This document shows positions 1 to 37,169 of a stretch of DNA of 38,200 bases, in pieces. Source of the DNA: a virus (lineage: Duplodnaviria; Heunggongvirae; Uroviricota; Caudoviricetes). The position numbers and the translations under genes were made by a program. The notes below the pieces were generated by a model. It did not search any database. It had not been told where the DNA came from and was given only the letters and a program-made list of their open reading frames with translations. The stretch covers positions 1-38,200 of the IMG/VR virus record IMGVR_UViG_2703719355_000022; one strand, written 5' to 3'. How positions within the stretch are numbered: position 1 is the first letter of the stretch; every line of letters begins with the position of its first letter.

Positions 1-124
1 TATCGAATCGTAATTATGTGCAGATGATTCGGCAGTCTATATCAGTTGTTAAAAATGACAACTTTTCGTTAACTGTAATTAAACCATCACCAGCGATAAC
101 TCTTTGCCAAGCGCCTTTGCCGCA

Positions 125-159
<35 letters not shown>

Positions 160-234
160 GTTAAATAGGCGAGTAATCTCCTGTTTAGGTTTGCCTAATA
201 TAATGCCCCCACAATAACACGAGGGGGTACAACA

Positions 235-2978: not shown

Positions 2979-3008
2979 AAGGGGTACAGATGTACCCCTT
3001 TTTAATTT
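2979..3008 (+). terminator. rho-independent terminator after the recombinase gene
   Basis: GGGGTAC-AGAT-GTACCCC hairpin followed by TTTTTAATTT. Confidence 0.65.
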
Positions 3009-3218
3009 AATTGCGTTAGGCAGCGTAAGCAAGTTTCATAGTAGTTTCCTCTAAAATAATAAGTTCACTACTATTTATCAGAGAAAATTGTCTTACTATT
3101 GCATTCTCTATCTGGATGTGGGTATAGGCGGGATTGAATACGGCAAAACTGAAACATTCCACTACTGCAATAAATCACTAAACAATATAAAGAATATTGC
3201 AAGTGTGGAGTGGAACTA

Positions 3219-4709
3219 ATGCAAGATATTAAAATTCATTTTCAAGATTACAGTTTCGTTAAGGTTGATTGCTCTCCTTCTATCGGAATGGAATTAAGAG
3301 ATTATTTCTCGTTTGAGGTTGAAGGGGCTAGGTTTAGCCCCCGTTACAAGTATTCTGGCTGGGATGGACGAATAAGACTGTTTACGCATGAAAACACCCT
3401 ACCAATTGGACTATTAAAAACGTTGGGTGTCTTTGTTAAAAATATGGGCTATTCAGTCTGGATTGACCCGCGATTGCTTGAGAAGGAAGATGTAACCAAA
3501 GACGCGATTAATGAATGGATTGATTCCCTAGAAGTGTATTCCGGTTCCAATAAAATCAATCCTTACTGGTATCAGCGTGAAGCAGTCTTTCTGGGTATTC
3601 ATAATCGCCGTAGAATGCTGGTTCTTCCTACCAGTGCCGGAAAGTCATTGATTGCTTGTATGCTGTCTCGCTGGTACTTAGAGCATTACACCGGAAAAAT
3701 TCTAATCATTGTTCCGACTACATCGCTAGTGGTTCAAATGAGGGATGATTTCATCGATTATAGGCTATTCCCTTATGAAGCAATTCATACAATGATGAGT
3801 GGTAGCGGGAAACATCCGGGAGATAGGCTAATCACTGTTTCAACATGGCAATCAGCTTGCAAGATGCCTCCTGAATGGTTCCGACAATATGGAATGTTGA
3901 TAGTTGATGAATCACATAAGGCTAGTGCCAAAAATATTACCAATATCATCAATGGAATGAATCATTGCCAGTTCAAAATCGGTATGACTGGTTCCCCGAA
4001 AGAATCAAAATGCCATTTAATGCAGTATGTCGGGCTTTTCGGTGATATTTCTAAGATCGTTAGCATTGACCGCCTGATGGAAGAAGGTCAAGTGACGAAA
4101 CTGAAAATCAACTGTCTTTTCCTTCGTTATACCGATGAGGAATGTAGCGCGGTTAAGGGTAGAGAATATGCGGAAGAGATCAAGTATATTACGTCTAACC
4201 CACGACGTAATAAGTTTGCTTGTAATTTGGCGCTAAAACTCGCTAAGAAGGGCGAAAACGTATTCCTGATGTTCCGCAATACTAAGCACGGAAAACTTAT
4301 GTATGATGCGTTACAGAAGGTACACGACAAGGTTTATTATATTGACGGTGGAGTTAAGACAGAAGAACGAGACGAGTTCAAAAAATTAGCGGAAGGGGAA
4401 ACAGGGATCATTTGCGTTGCATCCTATGGTGTGTTCTCTACTGGTGTTTCTATCAAGAACTTGCACCATGTTATTTTCGGGCATCCAGTTAAAGAATCAA
4501 CCATTGTTAGACAGAGTATCGGTCGTGCATTGCGCAAACATGGTTCTAAGGATATTGCTACCGTTTGGGATCTTATAGATCATCTGTGTATATTCGGTCG
4601 TAACGGAAAAATCAAGCATAAAAATTATGCGGTAAAACATGCACTTGAGAGAATCCGCTATTATTTGACCGACAAGTTCAGCTATGCAACTAAAACAATT
4701 GCTATATAA
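3219..4709 (+). CDS. uvsW: UvsW-like superfamily-2 DNA helicase
   Basis: N-terminus MQDIKIHFQDYSFVKVDCS...GWDGRIRL and motifs LVLPTSAGKS (Walker A-like), IVDESH (DExH), VASYGVFSTG, WDLIDH match my recollection of T4 UvsW along the whole length; ATG at 3219 with GGAG upstream. Confidence 0.85.
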   Translation: MQDIKIHFQDYSFVKVDCSPSIGMELRDYFSFEVEGARFSPRYKYSGWDGRIRLFTHENTLPIGLLKTLGVFVKNMGYSVWIDPRLLEKEDVTKDAINEWIDSLEVYSGSNKINPYWYQREAVFLGIHNRRRMLVLPTSAGKSLIACMLSRWYLEHYTGKILIIVPTTSLVVQMRDDFIDYRLFPYEAIHTMMSGSGKHPGDRLITVSTWQSACKMPPEWFRQYGMLIVDESHKASAKNITNIINGMNHCQFKIGMTGSPKESKCHLMQYVGLFGDISKIVSIDRLMEEGQVTKLKINCLFLRYTDEECSAVKGREYAEEIKYITSNPRRNKFACNLALKLAKKGENVFLMFRNTKHGKLMYDALQKVHDKVYYIDGGVKTEERDEFKKLAEGETGIICVASYGVFSTGVSIKNLHHVIFGHPVKESTIVRQSIGRALRKHGSKDIATVWDLIDHLCIFGRNGKIKHKNYAVKHALERIRYYLTDKFSYATKTIAI

Positions 4710-4744
4710 CAAAAAAAGCGCCCACTAGAGGCGCTTTAATTTTA
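4710..4744. terminator. bidirectional rho-independent terminator between convergent helicase and endolysin genes
   Basis: AGCGCC-7 nt loop-GGCGCT hairpin flanked by an A-run upstream and a T-rich run downstream. Confidence 0.6.
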
Positions 4745-5095
4745 TCCATGCCAGCGTGATTTTTTTGACCTGCTGTCGATGTGTGTAAAGGTTTTATATT
4801 TGCCTAAGCCGTATTGATTAGGATATTTCCCGTCAAGATAAGCATGGACAATATCAGGCGAGACGCCTTTCACTACAATATCAACCGCACGGCCTCGAAC
4901 ATGGTAGCTATTGGTTGCACCGCCTACATTCTTGTTATGAGTCGGACAACGGTTCCCGCTGTTAATAATTACTGGTTTCCCGAAGTGTTCGCGTACATCC
5001 TCAAGAATTACCAGCAGTTCAGCGTCGATAGTATCATAATCACATTTTCCGCATTTACATTTAAATTCCTTGCGAGAAAAATGCTTGCTTAACAT
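4742..5095 (-). CDS. peptidase M15-family cell-wall hydrolase (putative endolysin)
   Basis: Motifs HFSRKEF, SGNRCPTHN, SYHVRGRAVD and FTHID typical of zinc D-Ala-D-Ala carboxypeptidase-like phage lysins; first ATG at 5095 preceded by AAGGGGG (track start at 5131 is TTG). Confidence 0.6.
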   Translation of the reverse strand: MLSKHFSRKEFKCKCGKCDYDTIDAELLVILEDVREHFGKPVIINSGNRCPTHNKNVGGATNSYHVRGRAVDIVVKGVSPDIVHAYLDGKYPNQYGLGKYKTFTHIDSRSKKSRWHG

Positions 5096-15488: not shown

Positions 15489-15995
15489 TTATGTGATCTT
15501 TAAAGTCTGCTTAGTGCCAGTCTTCTTAATGTTGGTAAGGAAAGCAGCCGGAGGATTGCTTAACCAATAGTAATGAAAACCACTTTGCATACTGTTATAA
15601 GGAACAGTGACAGTAGCACCACCCAAATTAACGGTTATATTCCCCGCTCTACCGTTCTGGAGATATACAGCCATAGTAGGAGTACCGCCATTGAATTGAC
15701 CAACGATAACGCCAATCAGACGCCCTACGCCCACGTTTTCGGGGTTCTCCATAGATCCTTTACCGCGCATGTCAGTTACTGGATAGTTTGAAGCAGTCAC
15801 ACCCCAGTTATTACCCAATGAAGTAGACCACGCAGCAGTAGCTACAACCGTATCCATACCACGACCACACATCGCACTCATGTTAGCTGGGCGACTAACC
15901 TTTAATGCGTTCATTGCTGCGCTCATCCATCGTTGACCAGTTACAGAAACAGCAGATGACCCGACCCAGCCAGGCTTATTAACGACATTCGCCAT
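15489..15995 (-). CDS. hypothetical tail-module protein, 168 aa
   Basis: ORF with GGAGTAA ribosome-binding motif directly after a terminator; Gly/Ala/Ser-rich; function unknown. Confidence 0.4.
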   Translation of the reverse strand: MANVVNKPGWVGSSAVSVTGQRWMSAAMNALKVSRPANMSAMCGRGMDTVVATAAWSTSLGNNWGVTASNYPVTDMRGKGSMENPENVGVGRLIGVIVGQFNGGTPTMAVYLQNGRAGNITVNLGGATVTVPYNSMQSGFHYYWLSNPPAAFLTNIKKTGTKQTLKIT

Positions 15996-16693: not shown

Positions 16694-19600
16694 TTATTTA
16701 GTTGCTTTGAGTTCGGCAATCTCTTTAGTCAATGCTTCAATCTTAGCTTGATATTTGACGTCCATTTCCTGAATAGCTTTAATAATCAAGGCATTAACAG
16801 CAGAGTTAGAAATAGTCTTAATTGCTTCTGGATTTTCTGGATCTTCGGTGGATTGAATACCTACTGCTTCCGGCAATACTTCTTCCAGATCCTGAGCAAT
16901 AATACCGACTTCGCGTTTAATCACACTACGATCTTTAAGAGACTTAACTTTATCGTATGAGTAGACTTTCAGGGAGTTTACTTTCTCTAAAGCATCATCT
17001 TTTAATTCTTCCAGATTAACTTTCAGACGACGGTCCGAACGAATGTAAACATCGTTAAAGCTACCGTTACGACCTGCGGTAAAGTCACCAGCAGCGTTAA
17101 AGTCAAAGTTAGTATCATGAACATGGAGACGCACAAGAGCGTTACCGATAGTACCGCTAGGAACATGTACACCCATTGCTGCGATATGATATTTACCTTG
17201 ATGGGTTGCTTTCCATACGTTATGAGCGGAATCGGTTGATTGTTGACAGTCGACCTGAATACCAGAAGCACGATCACGCCAGCTAGCCCAACTACCACCA
17301 GCAACGCTACCACGAATAAGACCATTACCGCCACCGGATACAGTGCCCGTTTCAAGGTGAATCATCTTACCGCCGAATTTCCAGACTTCGGTTTGTTTCT
17401 CACCGCGCATACGCATAACGCCAGCATCATCGCAGTACAACAGACCCAATTCTAAGCCATTTGGATCTCTAAACCACAAATGCTTATTGCCACTGCGACG
17501 AAACTCAATATCAGCACCGTTAAGCGTGATATTACCGCCAGTGTGAATTGCTTTAGGTTTAACAGTACCGTTGATGGCAAACTCGATTAATTCAGTACCC
17601 GGACCGCCCGGTCGTTGTGTGTACCAGTGCCAACCGCTTTCGTCCGCACATTCGAATACTTGTTTACGAGCATCAGCACCCCACGCACGGATATTAAAGC
17701 TAGAAGTAGCTGTATTTTTGCCCCACGTTAATTTTCCTTCGGTAGTTAAATCCCCTCGGAAATGAGCAAGCAAACCACCAGATCCGTTACGTTCAGTGGT
17801 AAAGTGAGTTCCGCTAGTGTCCTGGAATTGCAAAACGTTATATCGGTTAGCGTTACTATTCCCCCAATGGTTAATCGTGAAAGAATCCATTGACTGATTC
17901 CCACCAGCAGAGAAAGTAAGCAATCCTTTTTCTAAGAATACGTTATTACTAAAGCGAGCAGCACGGCTATCTCTTTCAAGAATTAATGCACCTTCGTTAC
18001 CATCACCACCTAAAGTAACTTTACCATTTGTCAAATCGTAAATGAATGGTCGGTTTCCGTTCCACCCGCCCAATTTATCATTTTCGGCAGTAGAAAGAAG
18101 ATAAACTTTAGTGCCGTCATTACGCCAGAATGCACCATAATTACCGTAGATCATGCGGTAGGCGTCGCTATTCATTGAGATGAATTGAGCGTTAGTATAA
18201 ACTCGTTTTGTTCTACCAGTTGCAAGTTCGATCTGTCCGTCGATGTGGTGACGAATAGAAGTACCACCTACATCACTATACCATTCAAAAACGTTAGTAT
18301 CAGCATTACCATAACCGATCCACCCTTGACGGGTAATATCTCCAGTCCGATTATCTTGAAACGCAATATGGTTGGATTGACCAGCAGGACGCCGCAAGGT
18401 AATAACATTACTACCGCCACCTAACATCATTCGACCAGAAAGAATATTACCTTTATGAGTCCCAGCAATAGAGCTACTAGATTCAACGGTTAGAATCTCC
18501 TGAGCATCAGTGCTACCAGTAGCCAGACGATAACTGGAACCTTGAACCGTCTCATGCCAGATCATTTCATTATAGTTACTGCGGAATTTACGAATATATT
18601 TCCGACCAGTACCTTTATCATTACTTAGATGAACAATGTCATAGCTGTTTTGTGTGTTGTCGTCAAAACTCAACACACCACGTTTATTTTCTGTGTTAAA
18701 AAGAGTTACGTTGCGACCACCGATAACACCAACGGAAGGTTTAATTAACGTGGCTTCCGGCGTATCATAAACCGTCAAACTTACATAAACAGATTTCCCA
18801 TATTCGACAATAACGTTATCGGTATAACGCTGATATTTCACGTAGATATCATAGTTATCACCGGAAGTATTGACAGCAAATACCTCAAAATCTTTGTTTG
18901 TATTTCTACGGTATGCAATTACGTTAAGACCTTTAGGTCTATCGTTACCACTACGGAGAAGAATTTCTACTACATCAACTTGGTCATATGCCGTAACGTT
19001 GTAACCATTACCACCATGAATACGGAAAAACACACTACGCCCGTTTTGTGGAATTGTTGCGGTTGCCAATTTGAAATATGCAGATACGTTTTCGCTAGAA
19101 TTGGGAACAGACATAACGACGTTTTTAACAAACATCTTATCAACTTCGGCTTTGGTGTATGCACCAATCTCGCCAGGAGTCGGCTTATCACCTTCGTGAT
19201 ACATTTTATAGCTAAAGTCCTTCTGTCCTTCTCTATCAAAACCATAGGTTTCAACACGAGATCCACCAGACGCATAACGGAAAGTAAATCCGCGACCGTG
19301 CGCTTTACCGGCAGAATGAGGAACATTAAGAGTTAGATCTAAAAGACCATCTTGTTCATTAGTTCGGAAAGCACCAAAGTAATTAAGATCTCGTGATGTC
19401 TGGTCTTCCAGATAGTTAGCTGTCTTGCTTAACAGATACCCACCATGCTTAGTATTGGTATTCTTCTTGATGTAAAGAGCATCGTTGCTACCTTCAATAC
19501 CATCAATTCGACGGTTAGCGGCTGCAATCGCTGAATCAGTAGCTGATTTATTCTGGTCAACCTTGTTGTTAATGGCGGTGTGGTTGCTATTAACAGTGTT

Positions 19601-20305
19601 GGTTAAGTTGGTGATCTTCGTATCAGCATCGACCTTGTTATCGGATACAACCTTTTCGATTGCGGTCTTATTCGCCGCTACTGTCCCACTAAGGTTATTA
19701 ATTTTTGTGTCCGCGTCTTTCTTATTGGAAGTCACTGTAGCGGTTAAATTGCTAACGTTGGTGTTAGTGGTATTGACCTTGTTGTTTATTGCGGTATTGT
19801 TGTCCGCGACCGTCTTTGATAAAGCTGCGTGTTTACTATCGGCATCAGATTTATTCTGGTCGACCTTTGTGTTAATAGCGGTATGGTTGCTACTTACGGT
19901 CCCACTAAGATTATTAATTTTGGTGTCAGCATCGACCTTGTTATCACTAACCACTTTGGTCAAATTGCTAACGTTGGTATTAGTAGCATCAATGCGCTTA
20001 TTGGTCGCTGTATCTTTCGTGGTAATAGTCTGATTCAGTTCAGCTTTAGCACTAGCCAGATTATTAGCGGCCTCTTGTTTGTTGGAAGCAATAACACGGT
20101 CAGTGCTAGTTTTGTTATTGTCTACTTTCGTGTTTAAAGCATTATGACTTTCTGGGGAAACGCTGATTTGAACTACTGCGTTATTTTTGTCTTTGGTGTA
20201 AATTACATGGTCTGCCATCTGAATAGCGATTTCACCGACCTGTAATTGTTCTGGCGTTGGCTTTTTACCAGCCGTCTGTGTGCGTTTAAATTGGATAGAC
20301 TCCAT
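16694..20305 (-). CDS. tail fiber protein with C-terminal intramolecular chaperone (peptidase S74-like) domain, 1203 aa
   Basis: N-terminal tandem ~44-aa repeats (NTNVSNLT...DADTKINNLSGTV...); C-terminal segment DRRLKVNLEEL...VGIIAQDLEEVLPEAV resembles auto-cleaving chaperone domains of phage fibers. Confidence 0.8.
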   Translation of the reverse strand: MESIQFKRTQTAGKKPTPEQLQVGEIAIQMADHVIYTKDKNNAVVQISVSPESHNALNTKVDNNKTSTDRVIASNKQEAANNLASAKAELNQTITTKDTATNKRIDATNTNVSNLTKVVSDNKVDADTKINNLSGTVSSNHTAINTKVDQNKSDADSKHAALSKTVADNNTAINNKVNTTNTNVSNLTATVTSNKKDADTKINNLSGTVAANKTAIEKVVSDNKVDADTKITNLTNTVNSNHTAINNKVDQNKSATDSAIAAANRRIDGIEGSNDALYIKKNTNTKHGGYLLSKTANYLEDQTSRDLNYFGAFRTNEQDGLLDLTLNVPHSAGKAHGRGFTFRYASGGSRVETYGFDREGQKDFSYKMYHEGDKPTPGEIGAYTKAEVDKMFVKNVVMSVPNSSENVSAYFKLATATIPQNGRSVFFRIHGGNGYNVTAYDQVDVVEILLRSGNDRPKGLNVIAYRRNTNKDFEVFAVNTSGDNYDIYVKYQRYTDNVIVEYGKSVYVSLTVYDTPEATLIKPSVGVIGGRNVTLFNTENKRGVLSFDDNTQNSYDIVHLSNDKGTGRKYIRKFRSNYNEMIWHETVQGSSYRLATGSTDAQEILTVESSSSIAGTHKGNILSGRMMLGGGSNVITLRRPAGQSNHIAFQDNRTGDITRQGWIGYGNADTNVFEWYSDVGGTSIRHHIDGQIELATGRTKRVYTNAQFISMNSDAYRMIYGNYGAFWRNDGTKVYLLSTAENDKLGGWNGNRPFIYDLTNGKVTLGGDGNEGALILERDSRAARFSNNVFLEKGLLTFSAGGNQSMDSFTINHWGNSNANRYNVLQFQDTSGTHFTTERNGSGGLLAHFRGDLTTEGKLTWGKNTATSSFNIRAWGADARKQVFECADESGWHWYTQRPGGPGTELIEFAINGTVKPKAIHTGGNITLNGADIEFRRSGNKHLWFRDPNGLELGLLYCDDAGVMRMRGEKQTEVWKFGGKMIHLETGTVSGGGNGLIRGSVAGGSWASWRDRASGIQVDCQQSTDSAHNVWKATHQGKYHIAAMGVHVPSGTIGNALVRLHVHDTNFDFNAAGDFTAGRNGSFNDVYIRSDRRLKVNLEELKDDALEKVNSLKVYSYDKVKSLKDRSVIKREVGIIAQDLEEVLPEAVGIQSTEDPENPEAIKTISNSAVNALIIKAIQEMDVKYQAKIEALTKEIAELKATK

Positions 20306-26337: not shown

Positions 26338-28266
26338 TTAAAAGTTATTTACCCACCCACCACGACGCACAGGACGCGCCATAGGACGACGATTAGGTTT
26401 GTGATGAGTGATTGGCTTAGTTTCTTCGATTTGCTCGTTAGAATGTGATTTAGGAGCTTCTACGGTTGCTTCTGGTTCACGATTCAGCTTTTCTTTCATT
26501 GCAATGAGCTTATCCCATGACATTTTTGAAAGAACATAGCGAGAAGCCGCATAGCTATAAACCAGACAGTCGAGCGCCTCGTTTCGTGTCGCACCTGGAT
26601 TTTTTACCCAACGTGTTCCAGTAACAGTACGCTTGATGGATTCACTCAAAAGCTGATCGAGATAATCATCAGGAACGGTTTCTGATATCTCTAAACCAAT
26701 ATGAGGGTTTTCTTTCAAGTTGCGTGTTAATAGCTCACGAATAGCCGTTTTACCCACGTTAACGCCCAACATAAGCAACTCATGACCGCCCGTGGTAGTT
26801 GGTTTCACTGGAATGATTGGAGCAGTACCAGATGAACTACCTTTGATTGCGTGTAAGTTCTTCCACTTACCACCGCAAATACGGTATCCGGCTTGAGTGA
26901 ATCGACCGTTCGATGTATCAAGGAAGCTGGCGAGCATAGGAACACGATCACCCGATACAGTAGTAAATTTGGTTTTATGGAAGTTGATTAATCTGTCCCA
27001 TACAGGAGATTCATATCGTTCACAGTTATGGTCGTAAAAGCTGCGATGATCCAGAATATAAATCTTATCCTTTGCCACGCCCATGATCGTAGTTTCTGCG
27101 CGATCTAATTGCTGGTCAGTACCCGCACACAAGAAAATCACGTCATCAGGGATATTCTCGATAGAAACATCTGTTTTAAGTTCTTCCAGTTCGTTTACTT
27201 CTACTGCCGTTTCCTGATCATCGTATACAGTGCCGAGAACGGTATTATAAAAACTTTGTAAATCAAATGTTTGCCACGCTTGAGAGAAGTCAGAGACACA
27301 TGCTTTGATAGAGCTAAAAGGTGAATATAGACGGCTGATCCAGAATCCTGCTACATCACTTTCACGGGTAGCTCTCCATTCACCTTGTGCAACCGCTCTA
27401 ATGCGATCCCCTTCTGACCAATCAGTCTGGCAATGAGGACACACATAACGGGCGCTTTCAACACATGGCAGATTGCGACCATCCTGATTTTTCCACTCGA
27501 ACTTAACATTTTCCCACTCGATCACCTGGTGTTTCCCGCAATGCGGACAAGGAACAAAGAATTTACGCTGATCACTTGATAACCATTGTTGATTAATCGG
27601 TCCCAGCTTAGTGGTCGGGGTACTGGAAACGATAATTCTTGCTTCATCCCCGAAAGTGGTTGCGCGGTTAGCCGCAAGTGCAATCGGATCGCCCTCTTCA
27701 CTAGCACTGGCAGCATCACATTCATCGAGCAGAATCAACGGGCTGGTTTTTGAACGCAAGGTTGATGGGCTAGTAAGCGATACCATGTAAAGAAAATGAT
27801 TAGTCTTAAGCTGAATCTGACTATTGTTATTAACAGCGTTGCGATCATTCTTGTCGGTGATTGCTTCGCGTAATGCCGGACATGCTTCAATGGCTGGTCG
27901 GATCTTCCCGCTTAGGTACTGAGCGGTTTCCTTCGTGGTTGCTTGGCCTATGATGATATTGCTGGGATCGTTAGCTATCTTATTGAATAATATACCATTA
28001 AGGATGGAAGTTTTGCCGATCTGGGCACTTGTACAAAAAATGTACTTTTTCTTATTCTCTAAGAAAGGAGCATCAATCATGCCTTTCTGAAAGCTGGTTA
28101 ATTTAATTTTAGCGCCAGCTTGTGGTCCATCCACTAGGATCATGTTTTCCTCGCACCATTCAGATGGTAAACGCTTAATTGGCGGTCGGATATGTTTTGA
28201 TACTTCGTTAAAAATTCGCTTGAGTTTAAATTTATTTGAGAGTTTTTTCACCGTGATTATCCTCAT
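26338..28266 (-). CDS. terminase large subunit, lambda gpA family, 642 aa
   Basis: Motifs [29 protein letters not shown] and C-terminal RNEALDC recall lambda gpA; Walker A-like GKTS; first gene of the minus-strand operon. Confidence 0.9.
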
Positions 28267-32408: not shown

Positions 32409-32662
32409 ACGGGGACGGGAAAGAGACGGGGAAGGGATACCACGGGGACAGGTCGGGGATAACATGGGGATGATACGGGGACACCACGGGGAAAGCATTT
32501 AAAATCATATCCTTACATAAGAATACGCATCTAATACCGGGGATTTTACGCGGGGATGGCGGGGAAACTACCCTAATCCGGGGGATTTTGCTTCCAAAAC
32601 GGGGATGAACGCGGGGACGGTGACGGGGATACATCTTCTAAAGTGGGGATATCGCGGGGAAA
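32409..32662 (+). repeat. G-rich array of at least 16 same-orientation CGGGGA motifs, first seven largely phased at 11 bp
   Basis: GGGGA starts at 32411, 32428, 32444, 32455, 32466, 32477, 32488, 32539, 32552, 32561, 32581, 32601, 32613, 32625, 32645, 32656; flanked downstream by an AT-rich stretch. Confidence 0.8.
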
Positions 32663-36278: not shown

Positions 36279-36836
36279 TTACGACACATCAAATTCATCG
36301 TCTTCTTGTTCTTCTTCCGGTTCTTCCTGCTTCACTTCCTCATCTTCTGAGTATTCATCGTAGGCATCAAGATCCGGTGAAATCATAATATCCCCGATCT
36401 CATTCAAACGAGCGGAAATGATATCCTTCAATGTTTCTTTCAAAGTACGCTGATCCGTTGCAGCTTCCATAATTTTTAGAGTGTCTACCGTCGCCATCTG
36501 CATCATGGTCTGGCGTACATCACCACAAAATCCGGCTAGAACTGTTTCTACATAACCTACAGGAATCAGATCATTTAGTTCGGTGCGGTTCTTAAGTTCG
36601 ATGGCGTCCGCCTCCCCTCTCGCCTTTCTTAATCGTTCTTGTTGGATCTGCGCTTGTACATCAACTTCCCTAAGTGGGCTGATTATGTTTTCAATTACCC
36701 AGGTGATTGCTCTATCCCGTGGACAACGGCGGGTATTCGTATTATACGGAAGACCACGATCACGCCATTTCTGAACAGCCGGAAGGGAATACCCATACAT
36801 TTTAGATAATTCGGTTAAAGTTACTTCTTGCGTCAT
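36279..36836 (-). CDS. terminase small subunit, lambda Nu1-like, 185 aa
   Basis: N-terminal TLTELSKMYGYSLPAVQKWRDRGLPY and central ARGEADAIELKNR...YVETVLAGFCGDV match my recollection of lambda Nu1; ATG at 36836 with AGAGGA upstream; acidic C-terminus. Confidence 0.7.
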   Translation of the reverse strand: MTQEVTLTELSKMYGYSLPAVQKWRDRGLPYNTNTRRCPRDRAITWVIENIISPLREVDVQAQIQQERLRKARGEADAIELKNRTELNDLIPVGYVETVLAGFCGDVRQTMMQMATVDTLKIMEAATDQRTLKETLKDIISARLNEIGDIMISPDLDAYDEYSEDEEVKQEEPEEEQEDDEFDVS

Positions 36837-37169
36837 GAAACTATCCTCTGAGCTAAAAATATGCGTAATTGTATTTAGACGAAATACGCAATATAACGGC
36901 CTATAACGCAATTTAAGAAAATCCCATGTGACGGGGCGTTGAGAAGTGATTTAGCTCGTTGTAGGGCTTGTTTGGTGGCTTAACTAAACCAATTTGAAAA
37001 AGGCACAAGCGAGATTTAAACCGCGCCGGGCAAAACACGCCCTCTTTTACCACTTATCACAGCACCTTTCTGTTGTCAAGTCTTTTTTATCGAATATTTT
37101 AAATTTTTTCATCTTTTTTCTCGTGCATTCATCCGTTTTTTTCTCGGTCAAAATCAATGACTTGACCCG

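Follow-up and report, generated by a model that had tools for sequence, protein, structure and literature searches.

Why should a temperate siphovirus carry a core helicase gene of virulent T4-like phages, and what could the enzyme do there? The question is raised by a gene at positions 3219-4709 of the 38,200-nucleotide (nt) stretch of IMG/VR virus record IMGVR_UViG_2703719355_000022 (hereafter the window), which is an almost complete prophage of ~38 kb, a lambda-like temperate siphovirus, lying inside hicB of Escherichia coli. An initial annotation, made from the DNA letters alone, had proposed a T4 UvsW-type helicase at this position. In this study, we believe that the gene, uvsW, is best explained overall as a captured, insulated, re-wired, selected and repeatedly converted UvsW, a stand-alone RecG-like helicase, and we give this explanation a probability of roughly 0.78.

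Identity of the helicase

The gene is an uninterrupted open reading frame (ORF) that ends at 4709 and may start at 3210 (GTG) or 3219 (ATG). The RefSeq annotation of near-identical prophages chooses the ATG, which gives a protein of 496 amino acids (aa), and names it merely "DEAD/DEAH box helicase family protein".

3219-4709, + strand: uvsW, intact, encoding a UvsW-type superfamily 2 (SF2) DNA helicase of 496 aa (Pfam, PDB phmmer, PHROG, tree and motifs)

The Pfam search found the UvsW_N domain (PF21241) with E=1.4e-34 and 118.8 bits (cut-off 25.3), residues 3-83 covering positions 1-81 of the 81-position profile, together with ResIII (3e-19), Helicase_C (6e-11) and DEAD. When all PDB sequences were searched with phmmer, T4 UvsW (2OCA) was the top match with E=1e-182, query residues 3-494 aligning with chain residues 2-500 with one gap of 3 residues and one of 4, and the runner-up, an XPB-type helicase, reached only E=4e-14. 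T5-type helicases aligned at ~25% identity over about half of the protein. The N-terminus reads MQDIKIHF, and the SF2 motifs PTSAGKS (137), DESH (230), TGS (257), STGVS (407) and QSIGRALR (432) are unbroken and are kept in 8 of the 8 prophage copies examined, with the Walker A lysine present. The PDB chains of T4 UvsW have arginine at this lysine position, presumably the engineered K141R, and lysine was found in all natural motif-matching sequences examined.

The proposed resemblance to T4 UvsW from the MxDIKxHF motif through the helicase motifs was thus borne out. Because the similarity is full-length and includes the UvsW_N domain, it is specific to UvsW and goes beyond generic SF2 motifs. 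We also considered whether the protein could be an unrelated SF2 helicase or the locus a T-even assembly chimera or contamination. Matches to ResIII, DEAD and Helicase_C would be given by any SF2 enzyme, but the match to T4 UvsW takes in the family-specific N-terminal domain and the whole length of the protein. A chimera is contradicted by uvsW in the same slot of 17 independently assembled complete E. coli chromosomes and several Salmonella assemblies, with prophage genes contiguous with it on both flanks. Both alternatives were rejected, and the chance that the protein is not a UvsW is negligible. By every sequence criterion the protein would be placed in the UvsW family, from which it departs in contextual features only. 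The gene at 3219-4709 encodes an intact UvsW orthologue, predicted to be catalytically active, and we infer branch migration, fork regression and R-loop unwinding from the 53% identity to T4 UvsW and the intact motifs.

Origin of uvsW in Krischvirus-type phages

When the first 12 kb of the window was searched with megablast, the sole match to sequenced phages was the helicase gene, which matched uvsW of Krischvirus (RB49, JSE, G5211 and others) at 79-87% nt identity. The closest relative was therefore corrected from T4 to an RB49-like Krischvirus: the protein is 81-83% identical to UvsW of Krischvirus, with a nucleotide patch of up to 100% identity, and ~53% identical to UvsW of the T4, Mosigvirus and Tequatrovirus groups. 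In a neighbour-joining tree, the Krischvirus and prophage alleles formed one clade with 100% bootstrap support, apart from other T4-like phages and nested among T4-like phage UvsW proteins.

Since uvsW belongs to the core genes of T4-like viruses (PMC2993671), the original transfer ran from a T-even phage to the prophage, and fossils of synteny confirm the direction. Salmonella members of the prophage family, which have the same integrase and slot and are inserted at ycdX beside csg, also have a full-length uvsY gene, which faces uvsW in convergent orientation just as it does in T-even genomes. In one Salmonella member, a fragment across the gp51/gp27 junction matches RB49 at 76.6% nt identity. 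A UvsY remnant of 55 codons survives in E. coli FDAARGOS_1267; it includes the uvsY.-2/uvsY junction, and its identity to RB49 is 100% in aa and 87% in nt. These sequences show that a prophage family of E. coli and Salmonella acquired uvsW from Krischvirus-type virulent myoviruses, within a larger block uvsW...uvsY...gp51/gp27. The co-captured uvsY, gp51/gp27, uvsW.1 and uvsY.-2 are truncated or gone in most lineages.

The two intact UvsY proteins of Salmonella prophages (L019 9530-9940 and L026 6530-6937, both - strand) are 51% identical to each other and 74% and 47% identical to RB49 UvsY, respectively. The value of 51% would imply different T-even donors or very long independent retention without a UvsX partner. 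The ratio of nonsynonymous to synonymous substitution rates (dN/dS) is uninterpretable for UvsY, as dS is saturated. The Salmonella prophage allele P0012 groups as sister, at 97% bootstrap and 77% aa identity, with the allele from a T4-like contig of 168 kb whose genes follow the usual T-even order. Among more distant homologues, the metagenomic protein P0015 (844 aa) has PF05204 and PF14528 inserted between UvsW_N and Helicase_C. We take these to be homing-endonuclease or intein-type domains, so that P0015 could be a UvsW with an intein. The annotation of Serratia phage 4S lists a "putative split helicase" (P0019).

Gene conversion with virulent Krischviruses

The similarity to Krischvirus is not evenly spread along uvsW.

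4020-4563, + strand: gene-conversion patch in uvsW, with 91-100% identity to uvsW of the RB49 class of Krischvirus (from identities in a sliding window and the longest runs of identical letters)

The patch contains a perfect run of 305 nt against RB49 at 4065-4369, and outside it identity to the RB49 class falls to 55-80% in the first 800 nt and to about 60% in the last 150 nt. In the 335-nt core of the patch, the window has 2 differences from RB49, against 240 in the first 750 nt of the gene. The window also differs from G2248 at 3 and from JSE at 12 core positions, and RB49 and JSE differ from each other at 10. The copy in CFSAN061761 is nearer to JSE (6 differences) than to RB49 (12), and RMDEC332 and FDAARGOS_1267, with 49 and 105 core differences, are both without the patch. 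Different prophage copies are therefore nearest to different RB49-class phages. Patches that are nested in RB49-class diversity and have different apparent donors indicate repeated and recent gene conversion from virulent Krischvirus into prophage uvsW. An assembly artefact was excluded, as the same pattern occurs in independent complete genomes.

Krischvirus itself has two classes of uvsW allele, and the G5211/PTE-Eco09 class diverges from RB49 over the first ~990 nt. This part is 20-45% different, and the rest of the G5211 gene is 96-99% identical. In G5211 (L004 3265-3996) and PTE-Eco09 (L016 1265-1996), uvsW is immediately preceded by a homing endonuclease gene (HEG) of the SegE GIY-YIG type, and the 5' divergence looks like a co-conversion tract. 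HEGs tend to mark exchange boundaries between phages (Barth, Dunham and Seed 2023, PMC10448857), and the G5211/PTE-Eco09 pattern fits this. No similarity was found between the G5211/PTE-Eco09 HEG and the nuclease genes upstream of prophage uvsW. A common HEG as the carrier of uvsW was therefore rejected, since the nucleases of Krischvirus and of the prophages are unrelated. The allele classes, the sister grouping of P0012 and the divergent Salmonella UvsY proteins would all fit recurrent allele replacement.

The window also contains a gp37/gp34-like long tail-fibre gene (16694-20305, - strand) and a gp38_N adhesin gene (15489-15995, - strand). The fibre gene is a mosaic when compared with gp37 of Krischvirus Phi1, mostly 60-80% nt identical and 92-97% around 18100-18475, and it appears to be a second locus of exchange with Krischvirus.

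Architecture of the cargo slot and transcription of uvsW

In most of the uvsW-positive relatives, the slot has a common order: the integrase, a terminator, a - strand gene of 324-391 aa, a divergent intergenic region, a + strand ORF of 185-194 aa whose stop overlaps the uvsW ATG, uvsW, a bidirectional terminator and the endolysin. The window keeps this order with losses.

1263-2942, + strand: large serine recombinase, the prophage integrase (Resolvase, Recombinase and Zn_ribbon_recom domains; PHROG integrase, 2.8e-56)
2979-3000, + strand: intrinsic terminator after the integrase, a 9-bp G+C-rich stem followed by a T run, conserved in relative L002
3016-3120, no strand assigned: remnant of the divergent control region, 96% identical to L002 10252-10356
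3112-3218, + strand: last ~107 nt of the relatives' 185-aa CapR-domain ORF, 100% identical to L002 10893-10999
4715-4737, found on both strands: bidirectional intrinsic terminator between the convergent uvsW and endolysin genes
4742-5095, - strand: M15 (D-Ala-D-Ala carboxypeptidase-type) endolysin (Peptidase_M15_3, 9.5e-28; PHROG endolysin, 1e-45)

The 324-391-aa gene has CapR and MUG113/T5orf172 domains in the E. coli copies tested, and a CapR domain was detected in several copies of the 185-194-aa ORF. The CapR-domain 185-aa ORF is intact in L001, L002, L009, L011, L013, L014 and the Salmonella loci. In the Vibrio PLE satellite, CapR is a T5orf172 homing endonuclease that has been domesticated and is used against the helper phage (PMC8096241). 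In the window, two deletions removed the body of the nuclease gene and most of the 185-aa ORF, and CFSAN061761 is arranged identically. The remnant at 3016-3120 still holds the opening codons of the deleted T5orf172/CapR nuclease gene, with the ATG on the - strand at 3037-3039, and a piece of the intergenic region that includes a -35-like TTGCAT at 3099-3104. The stop of the CapR-domain ORF overlaps the uvsW start (TAATG), and a Shine-Dalgarno GGAG lies at 3207-3210.

RB49, JSE and G2248 have a perfect T4-type late promoter, TATAAATA, 44 nt upstream of uvsW, and this promoter is absent from the prophage copies of uvsW. A 7/8 match, TATAAAGA, at 3186-3193 lies within the remnant of the CapR-domain ORF, is unconserved in most Salmonella copies and was put down to chance. 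In E. coli and Salmonella relatives, the CapR-like ORF is preceded by a conserved arrangement TTGCA-N16/17-TATAAT, read by eye; a consensus promoter scan returned no sigma70 site upstream of uvsW in the window or L002. Because TATAAATA has been lost and TTGCA-N16/17-TATAAT is conserved in the relatives, we predict that uvsW was re-wired from T-even late control to a host-type, sigma70-like promoter. It is predicted to be the second gene of a small operon behind the CapR/T5orf172 homing-endonuclease-like ORF, and the terminators at 2979-3000 and 4715-4737 are predicted to insulate this unit.

Purifying selection and distribution

All eight uninterrupted prophage copies examined encode a full-length protein with every motif. 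The main-clade prophage copies are 92-98.6% identical in nt and 97-99.8% in aa, and the Nei-Gojobori dN/dS over the whole of uvsW was 0.01-0.09. Because imported tracts could carry the selection signal of the donor, the ratio was recomputed for the first 750 nt, where no Krischvirus import is detectable, and was 0.03-0.13. The two deletion-bearing alleles (window and CFSAN061761) differ at 4.5% of nt and only 1% of aa. Since uvsW stays intact while the co-captured T-even genes are truncated or gone in most lineages, these results point to purifying selection on UvsW itself, independent of its T4 partners.

The prophage family was found in 55-57 of 5,426 complete E. coli genomes (integrase in 57, head/terminase in 55). 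Of these genomes, 17 have uvsW, a lower bound at megablast sensitivity, as a single copy that always lies between the integrase and the endolysin. An IS1 element splits one of these 17, that of ETEC1738 (L012 1501-3768). In the uvsW-free members PE15, ETEC1717 and DEC5A, the slot holds other genes or is nearly empty, the alternative cargo being unrelated genes of 332 aa and 147 aa and, in one case, a 193-aa CapR/T5orf172 gene. Thus uvsW is variable cargo at a fixed slot, present or absent among otherwise collinear relatives.

We also considered a known defence system at the slot. PADLOC gave for UvsW only weak, partial SF2 matches (PbeA at 2e-11 over ~150 residues, type IV and type I restriction endonucleases, and HamB). 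Neither the alternative cargoes nor the nuclease genes were matched significantly, PD-Lambda-1 being marginal and partial (E=0.005). With generic SF2 matches only, this candidate was dropped, and the idea of a defence hotspot is speculative.

The prophage that carries uvsW

The left end of the element lies in the chromosomal antitoxin gene hicB.

79-198, - strand: 3' fragment of chromosomal hicB, the last 39 codons, whose translation ends in GKPKQEITRLFNLHHATKIDAVQLAAKALGKELSLVMV before the stop; left prophage/chromosome junction (attL side)

The element recurs in E. coli RMDEC332, where the halves of hicB flank it ~40 kb apart and a partial hicB is annotated at the same position. The gene encodes the antitoxin of the hicAB toxin-antitoxin pair, and the insertion (window 1-198) leaves hicA intact. 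RMDEC332 also has an IS911 copy upstream of the integrase (L001 15918-17086). Family members with a ~87% identical integrase insert in ycdX beside the csg operon in E. coli and Salmonella (L005 17094-17405).

The M15 endolysin is the first gene of a convergent lysis/late block and forms the right border of the slot in all family members. Among the late genes are a lambda-family portal, a gpA-type terminase, a lambda-like tail tube and an HK97-type protease-capsid fusion. The tail tip is of the J type by its C-terminal domain, and gp37/gp38-type fibre genes are also present. The portal, terminase, tail tube and tip support the lambda-like siphovirus morphogenesis context that the initial annotation had described, and its placing of uvsW beside a serine recombinase and converging on - strand lysis and tail genes was confirmed. 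Its further proposal of a mosaic replication/recombination module stood in part: uvsW is indeed foreign to the siphovirus background, but it does not belong to such a module, because the serine recombinase is simply the integrase at the hicB attachment site and uvsW is separately terminated, dispensable cargo in ~30% of family members.

Searches of the early-region ORFs against PHROGs, Pfam, NCBIfam and PDB sequences found no replication or recombination enzyme, and the single-sequence AlphaFold models of the 337-aa and 333-aa early-region proteins were uninformative (mean predicted confidence, pLDDT, 42 and 48). Besides the integrase and UvsW, the window has no UvsX, UvsY, UvsW.1 or other recognisable replication or recombination enzyme, and the T-even neighbourhood genes inh, uvsW.1, uvsY.-2, uvsY and 25 are absent from it. 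The part of UvsW in T4 recombination-dependent replication, which the initial annotation had carried over, is not simply transferable to this phage, because the UvsX/UvsY-type partners are absent.

At 32434-32498, with more copies to ~32670, there are six head-to-tail 11-nt units GGGGA(T/C/A)nnnnn and further GGGGA-containing copies nearby. They lie in a 1.6-kb ORF-poor stretch upstream of two genes of ~335 aa of no known function, and this iteron-like array may be a phage origin or a centromere-type site. A Nu1-like small-terminase homologue (36279-36911, - strand; PHROG 57, 3.9e-18) lies close to the right end of the prophage. A distance of ~8 kb separates it from the large terminase gene (26338-28266), which is unusual in the integrated map. 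An Rfam scan of the whole window gave no match.

Possible role of the captured UvsW

T4 UvsW unwinds R-loops, regresses forks and migrates branches (PMC3016281). The prophage enzyme would likewise use ATP to move along branched nucleic acids. As the functional analogue of RecG, it would drive the migration of Holliday junctions and D-loops, the regression of stalled forks and the unwinding of R-loops, and it would have to act without UvsX, UvsY, gp32 and UvsW.1. In the lytic growth of the prophage it may be an accessory that processes branched intermediates generated by host RecA or by replication, together with R-loops, so that forks restart and concatemers suited to packaging by the gpA terminase form. 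We regard such an optional helper in the prophage's own lytic growth as the most likely role, at a little under even odds. The enzyme would be helpful but dispensable, because ~70% of family members are without uvsW.

Several points weigh against this role or the overall explanation. The link between UvsW and the replication mode of the phage is one that we purely infer, the searches having identified no replication proteins. The intact UvsY of some Salmonella members, useless without UvsX and gp32, fits a role directed at T-even phages better, and a sigma70 promoter with moron-like insulation is equally compatible with expression in the lysogen. In the window, the deletion junction turns the -10 TATAAT into TATAGG (3123-3128), which makes transcription of this copy uncertain. 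The low dN/dS could be partly inherited from the donor phages if undetected 5' imports occurred. One IS1-split copy and the lack of uvsW in most family members suggest that any benefit is conditional.

Prophage UvsW, with UvsY in some lineages, could instead be a factor in conflict between phages that lowers the yield of RB49 and T-even phages on lysogens. Expressed from the host-type promoter in the lysogen or on superinfection, premature UvsW might unwind the R-loops at T-even origins, or UvsW supplied in trans might restore activity to uvsW-null phages that escape Shedu-type defences. Studies have shown that T4 makes UvsW only late, its R-loop unwinding switching the origins off (PMC3016281), and that T6 escapes Shedu by loss of uvsW (bioRxiv 10.1101/2023.08.10.552762; PMC13434031). 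This role is also favoured by the exchange of the late TATAAATA promoter for a conserved sigma70-type promoter, by moron-like insulation in a variable slot adjoining the integrase, by the intact UvsY without a partner in the prophage itself, and by neighbouring CapR/T5orf172 genes of a family that a phage satellite uses against its helper (PMC8096241). The conversion patches prove that RB49-class DNA reaches lysogens or their prophages and that these go on to have descendants. However, PADLOC returned only weak generic SF2 matches and nothing for the alternative cargo, the promoter is damaged in the window, and our literature searches found no paper linking UvsW to prophage-encoded exclusion. 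Over-expressed wild-type UvsW is reportedly toxic to E. coli, which argues against strong constitutive expression. On balance we consider such a factor unlikely; if it were real, mistimed UvsW would collapse origin R-loops of incoming T-even or Krischvirus phages or re-sensitise uvsW-null escapers to Shedu-like defences. Slightly less likely again is a broader form, in which the uvsW locus and the domesticated homing-endonuclease-like genes would be an instrument of conflict between temperate and virulent phages and also an allele-trading recombination partner in the chromosome.

It is improbable to a similar degree that uvsW is a selfish passenger, that is, the homology flank of a homing-endonuclease-associated exchange island, without benefit to prophage or host, which persists by re-import of functional sequence from infecting Krischviruses. 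HEG-like CapR/T5orf172 genes lie directly upstream of most prophage copies, the G5211/PTE-Eco09 uvsW has a SegE-type GIY-YIG HEG upstream and a divergent first ~990 nt, HEGs mark phage exchange boundaries (PMC10448857), and conversion tracts recur. The dispensability of uvsW in most family members and the IS1-disrupted copy would agree with a passenger, but the prophage nucleases are unrelated to the Krischvirus HEG, the import-free 5' 750 nt still shows constraint, uvsW is intact while uvsY, gp51/gp27, uvsW.1 and uvsY.-2 decay or vanish, and the nuclease-free alleles of the window and CFSAN061761 keep an intact, conservatively evolving ORF. Least likely of these roles, and a poor candidate in our judgement, is lysogenic conversion, in which low-level UvsW would supplement RecG- or RNase H-type activities of the host, clear R-loops and rescue stalled forks. 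Ectopic UvsW has been used as an experimental R-loop helicase in Rho- or RNase H-deficient E. coli strains (PMC5909445, PMC11551753), and a host-type promoter and autonomous transcription unit are predicted here. However, RecG, RNase HI and Rho are already present in E. coli, uvsW is rare (17 of 5,426 genomes) and associated with no host background, and the promoter of the window copy is damaged. The damaged promoter, the intact UvsY in relatives and the lack of a PADLOC signal pull in different ways, and computation does not firmly discriminate between these roles. The helper in lytic growth is the role that we prefer.

Significance and comparison with known systems

No account of UvsW in prophages or temperate phages was found in full-text literature searches, nor one of the capture of a core DNA-metabolism gene from a T-even phage by a temperate phage. 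The locus is a natural experiment on what UvsW can do without UvsX, UvsY or gp32. It also gives a clear and datable case in which DNA has passed from virulent to temperate phages: a perfect RB49 match of 305 nt lies inside ~30% divergent sequence, and the donors vary by strain. The case bears on the safety assumptions of Krischvirus-type phage therapy and on the archiving of virulent-phage genes in prophages. A functional uvsW resident in the host could matter for the dynamics of defence escape, because uvsW loss lets T-even phages escape Shedu.

Compared with T4 UvsW (2OCA, 1RIF), the prophage protein is collinear throughout, with UvsW_N, two RecA-like domains and the SF2 motifs, and the helicase chemistry on branched DNA and R-loops is presumed to be shared (PMC3016281). 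In contrast, it is only ~53% identical, has DESH where T4 has DECH in motif II, and is encoded by a temperate siphovirus in which uvsW lacks the late promoter and has neither uvsW.1 nor uvsY nor uvsX as a neighbour or partner. Krischvirus UvsW (RB49, JSE, G2248 and the G5211/PTE-Eco09 class) shares the 100% bootstrap clade, 81-83% of aa and ~540 nt of 91-100% identity with the prophage gene but differs from it in genomic setting, regulation and partner genes. E. coli RecG and T5 D10 are functional analogues, monomeric SF2 helicases of branch migration and fork remodelling. D10 has been described as a UvsW-like branch-migration protein (PMC5180179), and the RB49 and JSE records call UvsW a functional homologue of RecG. 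However, there is no specific sequence relationship, the T5 group aligning at ~25% over about half of the protein and RecG not being among the PDB matches.

As in HEG-flanked exchange islands (PMC10448857) and the CapR of PLE (PMC8096241), a conserved DNA-metabolism gene directly adjoins nuclease genes, of the T5orf172/CapR type in the prophage relatives and of the GIY-YIG type in G5211 and PTE-Eco09, and identity between genomes changes abruptly. Unlike in those islands, the exchange of uvsW crosses lifestyles, from virulent myovirus to temperate siphovirus, the partner nucleases are unrelated, and the nuclease genes of the window are deleted apart from remnants. T-even and lambdoid phages share tail-fibre genes, T4 gp37/gp38 with lambda stf/tfa. 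This is a precedent for gene flow from T-even to temperate phages, and the gp37/gp38-like genes of this prophage are up to 97% nt identical to Krischvirus, but the precedent concerns host-range genes, whereas uvsW is a core gene of DNA metabolism. The enzyme is ordinary and its setting is unusual: a T-even core gene captured, maintained alone and subject to datable, repeated conversion.

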